Shown here piece after piece: positions 3,001-6,000 of a DNA stretch of 35,268 nucleotides. Source of the stretch: a virus (lineage: Duplodnaviria; Heunggongvirae; Uroviricota; Caudoviricetes). Made by a program: the position numbers. The stretch is from IMG/VR virus record IMGVR_UViG_2778261214_000028, positions 1-35,268 of that record. The stretch is one strand, 5' to 3'. The stretch's first letter is position 1, and every line of letters starts with the position of its first letter.

Positions 3001-6000
3001 AAGTTGAAGGTCTCCATTTGCTGCGGCATCAGCCATTTTTTGCCTGACAAGCAGTAATGTTTCATACGGCTCAATAAGAATATCGTCATGAGTAATTAGG
3101 TGAAGCGTTGCCGCATCAACTATTCCTAGAGCTGCGCCAAGTATCAAAAATTCCCTGCTATTTTTGTCGCATGAGGAGATAAGCGTATTTAGCGCATACC
3201 TAATATTCTTTATAGCTGTTGTTAATGCTGCAATTTCTTCTATGGCGTCTTCTCCAATGAGCTTTTTAAGCTCATATTTTTCTTCCTGACCCATAATTAC
3301 CTCGCCGTCAGTTGTTTTGATTTCCGGTAGCCTGCCGCGTAAATGGCTACGTTTGGCAGGCAAATACTTCCACTGCATTCATCTGCCTTCTTGCAGCGAA
3401 GGCTTCCGAGTGATGCTGCTTTATCTGCTCTGACGCAACCAGAGAGCTTTAGCGCAATTTTTCGTGCCAATCGCTGTTCTTGCATTGCCTGTTCACGTTG
3501 AGCCTGTCTGCGTGCTCTGCGGCGATTTCTGGCGTTATCGTCAGCCAGATATGTAATGACTACTGTCATGTTGACCTCCGATGATTGACTTTGGCGGTGA
3601 CGCGCCGGGTGCTTATCTTCCGGTTGCCGTCGTGCAGCTGCACTTCACGTCACCCCAAAGCCAACTACTCTTTGGTTCCCGCATTTCGGCGGGACAATCC
3701 CATCAATGTTAAAGAGCCTGCCAATCTGTTCCGTTTGGCTTCCAGCGTCCTGCTGATGGCTTAAAGATAACTTAGGTTATAGGTGTGGTCAATAACCTAA
3801 TTTATATTTTATGGTAAATAGGTTATAAGTGATGGATAACAAAGGTATTTTATTTTTGTAAATGTTGCTGATTGATTGGTGTTTGAGGGCTTGCGTGCGG
3901 GGTGAAGGTGTTACCTTTGGCTTGATGCTTGTCTATGATGAGGATGGTTGATTGGGTGGTGAACGGCAGGAAAAGAAAACCCGGCGCTGAGGCCGGGTGT
4001 TTTTAGTCTTTTCTTTTGCTTAGCATTTCGTCGATTTCTAAGTCAATACGATATTGATCTATTGCTTTTCTCTCGTTTGGGGTTGGTATTTTATACTGTT
4101 CAATTAGATCTGTTGTGTATTTTATTTCATCTAATGTGATTTTTATATCAGAGAGAATCTCTTTTATATCAATTATATGCTCTTCTTCTTTTGCACGATT
4201 AGAGCTATGTTCAATCATTTGAGATAGCTTTTTACTAATGCTTAGCAAAACAAAAAGAATGATGACCAAAACAACAACAAAAACTATCAGAAATTCCATT
4301 ATCCCTCCGCACTTCCGTAAGTCTTCTTCTGATTATCGGTTACCAACTATGAGACGACCAGAATACTCTGCCAATAATCCTTACGGTTTCATGAAATTCA
4401 TCTCTATCCATTACTTCATCCGGGTACTCTTCGCGATTTATTGATCTGATTATCACCGATGTAGGGGTGGCGATTAATGTTTTTACTCGTAACAAATCAG
4501 ACTGGCAAATAGCGTAGGTTTTACCATCTCTGATTGTGGTATCTTGCGTGTTAACACCAACAACATCGCCATCGTGAAGCGTTGGTTCCATGCTTTGCCC
4601 TACAACCCTAACTAGCTTGGCTGATCTTTCAGATACTCCCATCTTTTTCAGATAGTGCTTTCTGAAAACCAAAGAGAACTCCGATGATTCCTCTAGCTCG
4701 CAGCTACCGCTTCCAGCTGAAAGCGAAACGTTAAGAAGAGGCAACGCAACAAACTCGTCATCGTTTCTTTTAATGTCTTCCCATACCACAGCTTTTAAAG
4801 ATGAATCACGGACATTGGATGGTTCTTCATGTGCACCATCCCTCATTTCACCAATACCAGAACTAAGCCATTCAGGACGCACTTTTAAAGCATTGGCTAA
4901 TTCAACCATCTTGCGAGATCCGTTTGTTTTACCGGACGACATCTTCTGTATGGCTGGCTGAGATATTCCAACCATGTCAGCAAGCTGTGATTGTGATACC
5001 CCTGCTGAGCTCATGGCTGCATTTAGTCTTTCTGCGAATGTTTTCATACCCACAAATCTATAACTACGGTTATCCAAAGTAAAATAACAAAGGTTATTGC
5101 TATTTTTTATAACTTGAGTTATCTTTGGTTATAAGTAATGACCACAAGAGGTATGCTCATGAATTTAGTAATTCAACGAGCCTTGAAAATTGTCGGTAGC
5201 CAAAAGCGCCTTGCCGACAAGTGTGGTGTAACGCAGCCAGCAGTACACAAATGGCTGAAAGGCGGGTTGGTCTCTCCAGAGAAAGTTACCGCCATCGTTA
5301 ACGCCACTGGAGGGCAGATCAAGGCTTACGAAATTCGCCCCGATTTGCCACACCTGTTTCCAAAACCGAATCAGGCAGCATAAGTAACACCGCTCTTTAA
5401 CAGTCATGGTCCTCATTCCCGCCGAAATGCGGGAATACAACGCGCATAAGTTGATGCGCATAACTTCTTATTTGTTAAGGAAATACTTACATATGGAACT
5501 TACAAGTACTCGCAAGAAAGCGAATGCAATTACAAGCAACATCCTGAATCGAATTGCTGTACGTGGTCAGCGAAAGGTTGCCGACGCGTTAGGGATTAAT
5601 GAATCGCAAATTTCGCGATGGAAAGACAGCTTCATCCCAAAAATGGGAATGCTTCTGGCTGTTCTTGAATGGGGTGTTGAAGACGAGGAGTTGGCGGAAC
5701 TGGCTAAGAAAGTAGCCAGAATGCTGACAAAAGAAAAAGCCCCGAAGAACGGCGAATTCTTCGAGGCCTGATGTAGAAAGACTGGATCAATCCACAGGAG
5801 TAATTATGACATACGAAAATGACAAATTCCAGGTTCTGAAGAGCATGAAGGTGCCAGATGATTTTAAATCAAATGGCTTTGTTTATGTGCTTTCGAATGA
5901 GTGCATGCCAGGAATTTATAAGATTGGGATGACTAAGCATTCACCAGAAGTTAGGGCTAAAGAAATTTCAGCCTCTACTGGCGTTCCTAAGCCATTTAAG

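Follow-up and report, generated by a model that had tools for sequence, protein, structure and literature searches.

Within a 35,268-nucleotide stretch of viral DNA (IMG/VR record IMGVR_UViG_2778261214_000028, positions 1 to 35,268; hereafter the window), which represents an HK620/Sf6-like (P22-like) prophage, we analyzed a 98-codon open reading frame (ORF), orf98, located directly downstream of the gene for the cI repressor. This ORF is a true protein-coding gene on which purifying selection acts, and it very probably specifies a membrane protein expressed from the cI operon. The position of the gene and the architecture of its product hint at a role in phage exclusion by protein contacts at the membrane, which we put forward as a tentative but serious possibility. 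What is new here is an uncharacterized family in a niche of a known kind; the concept is an ordinary one and the anatomy of the system is well defined.

orf98 is a protein-coding gene under purifying selection

The first-pass annotation of the window had described an ORF of 98 amino acids that begins 40 bp past the cI stop codon on the same strand, behind a GGAGGG Shine-Dalgarno sequence, and all these elements were confirmed (Table 1). Comparison of orf98 with its counterparts in three other loci (L003, L005 and L007; 76-78% protein identity) yielded a ratio of nonsynonymous to synonymous substitution rates (dN/dS) of 0.15-0.17 at a dS of about 0.8, with about 30 synonymous changes. For the C-terminal 55 codons the ratio was as low as ~0.07-0.09, at a dS of 0.8-1.0. 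The predicted protein matched over its full length (residues 1-98 of 98, E = 6.4e-62) the family phrog_18389 of PHROGs v4, for which the function is given as unknown; the same family was matched by all 17 aligned relatives.

The signals around the gene were examined on both of its sides. At the position of the Shine-Dalgarno sequence the relatives retain GGAG or GAGG. The spacer between cI and orf98 contains no stable hairpin (-5.3 kcal/mol, z = +0.9), and the terminator scan detected no terminator in it. On the other side, a GC-rich stem (3979-3998) begins 5 nt past the orf98 stop codon. The scan called it a terminator in each orientation, and the hairpin energy is -13.7 kcal/mol for the minus and -18.4 kcal/mol for the plus strand, in agreement with the bidirectional terminator that had been placed directly after the gene. 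No promoter was found inside the orf98 cassette (defined below), and the sites returned by the promoter scan were no commoner than in shuffled sequences. The only promoter-like match, extending from 4374 to 4346 (9/12) within the 3' end of cI, was considered and rejected as probably due to chance; it lies in cI sequence common to phages that do not carry orf98.

Since the cassette has no promoter of its own, expression of orf98 must depend on the cI promoters, and as there is also no terminator upstream, co-transcription with cI is the simplest reading. In all likelihood, a single transcript would cover cI and orf98, starting at pRM in lysogens and at pRE while lysogeny is being established, and it would end at the 3979-3998 stem. 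The candidate pRM (TTTACT-17 nt-TAGATT) adjoins the middle oR operator and overlaps the operator nearest to cI, and its end is 7 nt away from the cI ATG; by analogy, this is taken to be the pRM arrangement of lambda. The layout typical of cI-operon genes such as rexAB, hex and bstA, i.e., the same strand, a position directly downstream of the repressor and a terminator only after the gene, was found for orf98 and for every relative examined with at least 32% identity.

A repressor-linked family carried as a cassette

A word-indexed search recovered only close relatives, from Escherichia coli and Citrobacter, and an exhaustive hidden Markov model search of 1.84 billion representatives resulted in 14 clusters. 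The relatives, 94-126 amino acids in length, share a common plan, in which a membrane helix at the N-terminus is joined by a variable linker to a conserved motif at the C-terminus. Down to 24-32% identity they agree in start and reading frame as well as in length and motif. All examined relatives with at least 32% identity (about 50 loci in total, taken from public contigs, from IMG/VR, with all 33 loci and further ones, and from E. coli chromosomes) follow an S24-type cI gene of the same strand at a distance of 1-44 nt, with the gap narrowing to 1-15 nt in some of them. These loci are flanked by cro, cII and replication genes on one side and by N on the other. The repressors adjoining the family gene fall into at least six groups, some of which are only 18-30% identical; the adjacent cI proteins diverge down to 18-22% identity while the family proteins remain 61-77% identical, and no correlation was observed between the identity of the repressors and that of their downstream neighbors.

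The named hosts of the family are Escherichia, Citrobacter and Yersinia frederiksenii, and one distant member comes from Pelagicoccus. Members are rare. In E. coli, the cassette is present in 99 of 5,426 complete genomes (~2%), the same number as carry an allele at least 99% identical to the window cI, and 98 of these 99 copies of orf98 are full length. It is common in prophages of Shiga toxin-producing E. coli (STEC) of serogroups O26 and O111 and occurs also in commensal, enterotoxigenic (ETEC) and animal isolates; it is carried, among others, by 11368, the reference strain of O26:H11, by strain H19 (with an identical copy) and by at least one Stx1a-converting phage. Strain H19 is the source of phage H-19B. 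When 50,697 phage records were searched by tblastn with four members of the family, Stx1a_10051 alone was returned, and two scans of 100,044 species-representative genomes revealed no member of the family.

Comparisons between loci delimit a mobile unit. Positions 3976-4309 are the only stretch that is shared, at about 81% identity, with loci whose cI is unrelated; the cI proteins of the L003, L005 and L007 loci are only 19-22% identical to that of the window. Homology to SH2026Stx1 and PA28, which have the same cI type, ends at 3857-3867 and restarts at 4338-4340, and other genes are found in between: a DUF3024 protein and two hypothetical proteins in SH2026Stx1 (cI 94% identical), and an unannotated ORF on the opposite strand in PA28 (cI 78% identical). 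The terminator is present also in six of the seven other loci examined and moves together with orf98. The composition of the gene is distinct as well. The GC content of orf98 is 29.3%, compared with 43.2% for cI (the higher AT content relative to cI had been pointed out before) and 46.3% for the whole window, its GC content at third codon positions is 25%, versus 37% for cI, and in eight loci the family gene has a GC content 7-15 points lower than the adjacent cI.

The first-pass annotation had suggested that orf98 is a horizontally acquired moron. In the sense of Hendrix and Juhala, this is supported by the presence or absence of the cassette with sharp boundaries, by its distinct composition and by its own terminator; an own promoter, for which the definition also calls, was not found: the cassette begins ~10 nt before the ATG and the gaps to cI are 1-44 nt.

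Protein architecture and possible roles

The orf98 protein can be divided into a membrane helix (residues ~2-22), a variable linker (27-43) and a conserved helical hairpin (44-96). Its only hydrophobic segment has a Kyte-Doolittle hydropathy of 3.4-3.7 over residues 1-22, and the tail is 41% charged, with an isoelectric point of 4.9. Two AlphaFold models, with a predicted local distance difference test (pLDDT) score of 81 and 80.5, are all-helical: one long helix reaches from the membrane segment to residue 68, residues 69-73 (YKIPT) form a turn, and a second helix returns over residues 74-97. The earlier description of one N-terminal membrane helix and a charged helical tail is thus in agreement with hydropathy, composition and models. 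The family motif is IKY[TV]TDxIEKYKLPxxxERxxIDxIxxDxEI, and residues Y69, P72, D81 and E88 are invariant. Conservation is lowest in the linker (0.26), moderate in the membrane helix (0.49) and highest in the hairpin and turn (0.56-0.69). The membrane helix is purely aliphatic (FLIVFVVVLVIILFVLLSI); it has no small-xxx-small positions and none that are polar or charged, and what the family keeps of it is the hydrophobicity alone.

In all 17 aligned members basic residues are absent before the membrane helix and number one to four just after it, and no signal-peptidase site was found in any of these sequences. This distribution strongly suggests that orf98 is a single-pass inner-membrane protein with the N-terminus outside and the C-terminus inside. 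As the helix is aliphatic and only moderately conserved, whereas the hairpin is the most conserved part and under the strongest purifying selection, the functional part is in all probability the conserved acidic hairpin (44-96) at the cytoplasmic face, with the helix serving as a passive anchor. The hydrophobic residues 42, 45, 49, 52, 56, 59 and 66, read directly from the sequence, form a heptad pattern, which makes self-association possible.

Homology and structure searches returned phrog_18389 only and no protein of known unrelated function. Nothing significant was obtained for orf98 or for the 17-member alignment in Pfam and NCBIfam; the best match in PADLOC-DB v2, to ZorB/MotB, was not significant (E = 0.017) and covered only the membrane helix, and the best match of a sequence-profile search of PDB, likewise not significant, was a designed helical protein (E = 0.23). 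Foldseek gave 0 matches in BFVD and PDB, a search of the whole window against Rfam gave no match, and at E <= 0.01 no annotated family of PHROGs or Pfam was matched by any of the 17 members. The literature search found no mention of phrog_18389 or WP_000394868; Neely and Friedman's papers on H-19B (1998), which lay outside that search, may list the ORF, since strain H19 carries an identical copy. Literature on membrane proteins encoded downstream of cI and on transcriptomes of O26 prophages contained no description of orf98.

The closest parallels are those of position. Lying between oL (3767-3805) and cI, inside the immunity region, orf98 occupies the slot that lambda uses for rexAB, as had been proposed. 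Like orf98, RexA and RexB are encoded between cI and oL/N, on the same strand, with a terminator before oL, and RexB is, as orf98 is predicted to be, a membrane protein expressed from the repressor operon. RexB, however, has 144 amino acids and crosses the membrane several times, with four membrane helices, and it works with the cytoplasmic sensor RexA, whereas orf98 has one helix and no second gene accompanies it in the slot. The two proteins have no detectable sequence relationship (hhalign probability of 1.5%; no match in Pfam, PHROG or PADLOC). BstA is a soluble protein of ~300 amino acids, in contrast to the 98-amino-acid membrane protein considered here, and there is no detectable similarity between them. 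Like orf98, BstA of the Salmonella prophage BTP1 is encoded directly downstream of cI, presumably sharing the cI promoter; this cI-linked architecture is strikingly conserved across BstA homologues, and the gene has its own Rho-independent terminator (PMC8585504). Hex of phage 434 is a second product of the pRM-cI mRNA in lysogens (PMC3564112), as orf98 would be. The ORF of Hex apparently overlaps the cI coding region and its product inhibits RecA-stimulated cleavage of the repressor, while orf98 is a separate ORF with a membrane anchor; this distinction is based on the description of Hex.

Other known proteins are similar to orf98 in kind but not in location. Imm and Sp of T4, gp15 of HK97 and SieA of P22 are small phage inner-membrane proteins that block DNA entry (PMC11436027). 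All of them are encoded at other genomic positions, and no homology to any of them was detected via PHROGs or Pfam with the 17 family members. HK97 gp15 is said to have been described as a moron by Cumby et al. in 2012. For the conserved domain of orf98 a cytoplasmic location is predicted, which does not fit a periplasmic block such as that exerted by Sp on lysozyme. DicB of the Qin prophage, which inhibits inner-membrane phage receptors (PMC6832061), and PdpSau of Staphylococcus aureus prophages, which is membrane-anchored and causes abortive infection (PMC10127798), are small proteins, encoded in a prophage immunity region or expressed in lysogens, that protect the host. Both are unrelated to orf98 in sequence and neither is encoded directly downstream of cI; DicB is, moreover, soluble and acts via MinC. 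The first-pass annotation had not recognized orf98 as any of the exclusion factors known from this position, and in profile, structure and defence-database searches it matched no known exclusion or defence family.

In the explanation that we favor, the acidic helical hairpin, which the anchor helix would tether to the inner membrane on its cytoplasmic side, would bind a host protein or a protein of an incoming phage at the membrane. Such binding would block DNA entry or an early membrane-proximal step, protecting the lysogen from other phages, and it would not involve a depolarizing pore. The slot between cI and N is a recognized site of exclusion genes, as exemplified by rexAB and BstA (PMC8585504), in line with its description as a hotspot in the first-pass annotation, and prophage proteins that act by protein contacts at the inner membrane, such as DicB (PMC6832061) and PdpSau (PMC10127798), do block infection. 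Several observations weigh against this explanation. The window prophage already possesses a candidate exclusion gene of the gp17 type; the three most distant members of the family (24-34% identity) are not located beside an S24 repressor on their short contigs, and their contexts gave no functional clue. A position downstream of cI fits also roles other than defence, as in the case of 434 Hex (PMC3564112) and of RexA, which affects the switch (bioRxiv 10.1101/2021.04.19.439022). Finally, orf98 has no homology to any exclusion or defence protein, and the literature search found no phenotype, expression record or interaction partner for it.

Alternatively, orf98 might tune the lysogeny switch or prophage induction, with the hairpin binding a host component (RecA*, FtsH/HflKC or similar) and setting the stability of the lysogen; we consider this unlikely. 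The linkage of the family to S24-type, RecA-cleavable repressors survives deep divergence, with gaps down to 1 nt, which suggests more than an opportunistic use of the promoter. Hex (PMC3564112) and RexA (bioRxiv 10.1101/2021.04.19.439022) are precedents for the slot, and the cI allele (at least 99% identity) and the cassette are found in equal numbers of complete E. coli genomes (99 each). On the other hand, the cassette has moved among cI proteins that are 18-22% identical, and after such exchange between unrelated repressors orf98 cannot be specific for one of them, so that any target would have to be a host factor. BstA, a defence protein, is just as strictly linked to cI, and no similarity to Hex-like or RecA-binding families was found in PHROGs and Pfam. 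A more specific proposal, according to which the family is, instead of exchangeable cargo, a conserved accessory of the S24 switch whose hairpin couples the envelope state or a membrane-bound host factor (FtsH/HflKC, RecA*) to repressor stability, appears to us clearly improbable. If it were true, orf98 would set the induction threshold of lambdoid prophages, including the Stx1 prophages of O26/O111 STEC, and consequently influence toxin release.

It is likewise unlikely that orf98 is lysogenic-conversion cargo that alters the envelope physiology of the host (stress tolerance, division, transport or colonization) and has no part in anti-phage defence or in the switch. Expected constitutive expression in lysogens, the predicted bitopic membrane protein and the frequent occurrence in O26/O111 STEC prophages, as well as in commensal, ETEC and animal isolates, would all suit such cargo; however, lambdoid immunity regions are almost the only place where the family occurs, its absence from the 100,044 species-representative genomes is as expected of phage-specific cargo and not of a gene for general host fitness, and the protein has no homologues among envelope-stress or division factors.

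The first-pass annotation had also considered a membrane-depolarizing factor, and this version is disfavored by our results. A RexB-like or holin/toxin-like effector, whose membrane helix would oligomerize into a pore and depolarize the cell upon a phage trigger, seems quite improbable in view of a featureless aliphatic helix without polar or charged residues, in which only hydrophobicity is kept, of the strongest purifying selection falling on the cytoplasmic hairpin, of the low hhalign probability against RexB given above, and of a cassette without a RexA-like sensor partner, even if the slot is that of lambda rexB and a small hydrophobic N-terminal helix is followed by a heptad-like amphipathic helix able to oligomerize. 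That orf98 is no functional gene, but a spurious ORF or one in decay, within what is only an AT-rich spacer and terminator of the cI transcript, as its shortness, its AT-richness, the lack of database annotation and the few truncated variants (P0005, P0010 and P0011) might suggest, is hardly credible: it is effectively refuted by the selection analysis, and the frame, start, length and motif kept among distant relatives, the full-length E. coli copies and the full-length phrog_18389 match speak against it too.

The immunity region and its setting

The features of the region are collected in Table 1.

Table 1. Coordinates of orf98, its cassette and the surrounding immunity region in the window.
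Feature	Position	Strand	Remarks
N	3297-3569	minus	antiterminator; heads the leftward early operon; distal limit of the cI-N hotspot
oL and pL-like promoter	3764-3805		operators 3767-3780 and 3792-3805; pL-like promoter on minus strand, 3792 to 3764
Variable cargo slot	3868-4337		between blocks common to PA28 and SH2026Stx1 (left, N/nutL/oL; right, cI/cro)
Bidirectional intrinsic terminator	3971-3998	both	stem 3979-3998; terminator scan and U-runs on each strand
Mobile cassette	3976-4309	minus	334 bp; ribosome-binding site, ORF and terminator; promoter-less
orf98 coding sequence	4003-4299	minus	98 amino acids plus TAA; ATG start
cI-orf98 spacer	4300-4339	minus	40 nt; cI stop at 4340-4342
Shine-Dalgarno sequence of orf98	4303-4308	minus	GGAGGG; 3 nt 5' of the orf98 ATG
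cI repressor	4340-5047	minus	HTH_3 + Peptidase_S24; phrog_4; 235 amino acids; ATG at 5047
oR	5055-5122		three ATAACN4GTTAT operators: 5060-5073, 5084-5097, 5109-5122
Candidate pRM		minus	-35 TTTACT 5083-5078, 17 nt, -10 TAGATT 5060-5055
cro	5159-5383	plus	

The gene order, N - nutL - pL/oL - terminator - orf98 - cI - oR - cro - cII, is that of lambda, with orf98 in the place of rexA-rexB. Five matches to ATAACN4GTTAT were found in the window (0.85 expected by chance), all of them in two clusters, oL and oR. The longest cI ORF begins at a TTG at 5077, and the 708-bp version is annotated in RefSeq; the ATG of the latter lies 7 nt past the TAGATT -10 element, suggesting a leaderless pRM transcript as in lambda. 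The immunity region is flanked by nutL and nutR, with identical boxB-type hairpins (CCCGCCGAAATGCGGG, transcribed strand) at 3671-3689 and 5417-5437.

Between the bidirectional terminator and oL there is a G/T-rich stretch of 108 bp (3868-3975), which was seen only with the orf98 cassette and whose only ORF has 29 amino acids (3863-3952, plus strand). At the equivalent position the L003, L005, L007 and L013 loci contain a convergent gene of 68-75 amino acids running into the shared terminator, which would explain why the terminator is bidirectional; the copy of this gene in L005 matches phrog_3975, and PA28 has there an unannotated ORF of 88 amino acids (phrog_3946).

The immunity region is shared, at 99.8-100% identity, with a lambdoid prophage found in E. 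coli O26:H11 11368 and in strain H19, and with phage Stx1a_10051. For the 11368 prophage, the identity over N-oL-orf98-cI-cro (3300-5500) is 99.8%, and the replication modules differ, O being accompanied by a DnaC-like protein in the window and by a DnaB-type helicase in 11368. This exemplifies how modules are exchanged at the boundary of cII and O. The gp17-type candidate exclusion gene mentioned above (1281-1646, minus strand; PF17420, E = 3e-53) is a homologue of the P22 gp17 "superinfection exclusion" gene and belongs to the early-left operon. Antisense within the leftward pL operon, a 164-amino-acid ORF (2407-2901, plus strand; phrog_1244) with CxxC...CxxC near its C-terminus is annotated as hypothetical in O26 11368, and a similar protein is encoded beyond N in the L060 locus (6020-6604, minus strand). 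Between cII and the O replication gene lies a 214-amino-acid T5orf172/MUG113 (GIY-YIG-like) ORF (5806-6450, plus strand), which overlaps the longest O reading frame (start at 6377). The O gene contains four 24-bp tandem repeats (6811-6906) that encode a repeated NVSKLETL and are presumably the iterons of the origin.

Exclusion genes expressed in lysogens have their classic home between cI and N, and the orf98 family, which consists of a single gene, represents a further, strictly repressor-linked occupant of this region. With 98 amino acids, four invariant residues and an architecture that can be tested, orf98 is a tractable protein. An effect of orf98 on superinfection, poly-lysogeny or induction, if true, would bear on the ecology of Shiga-toxin phages.

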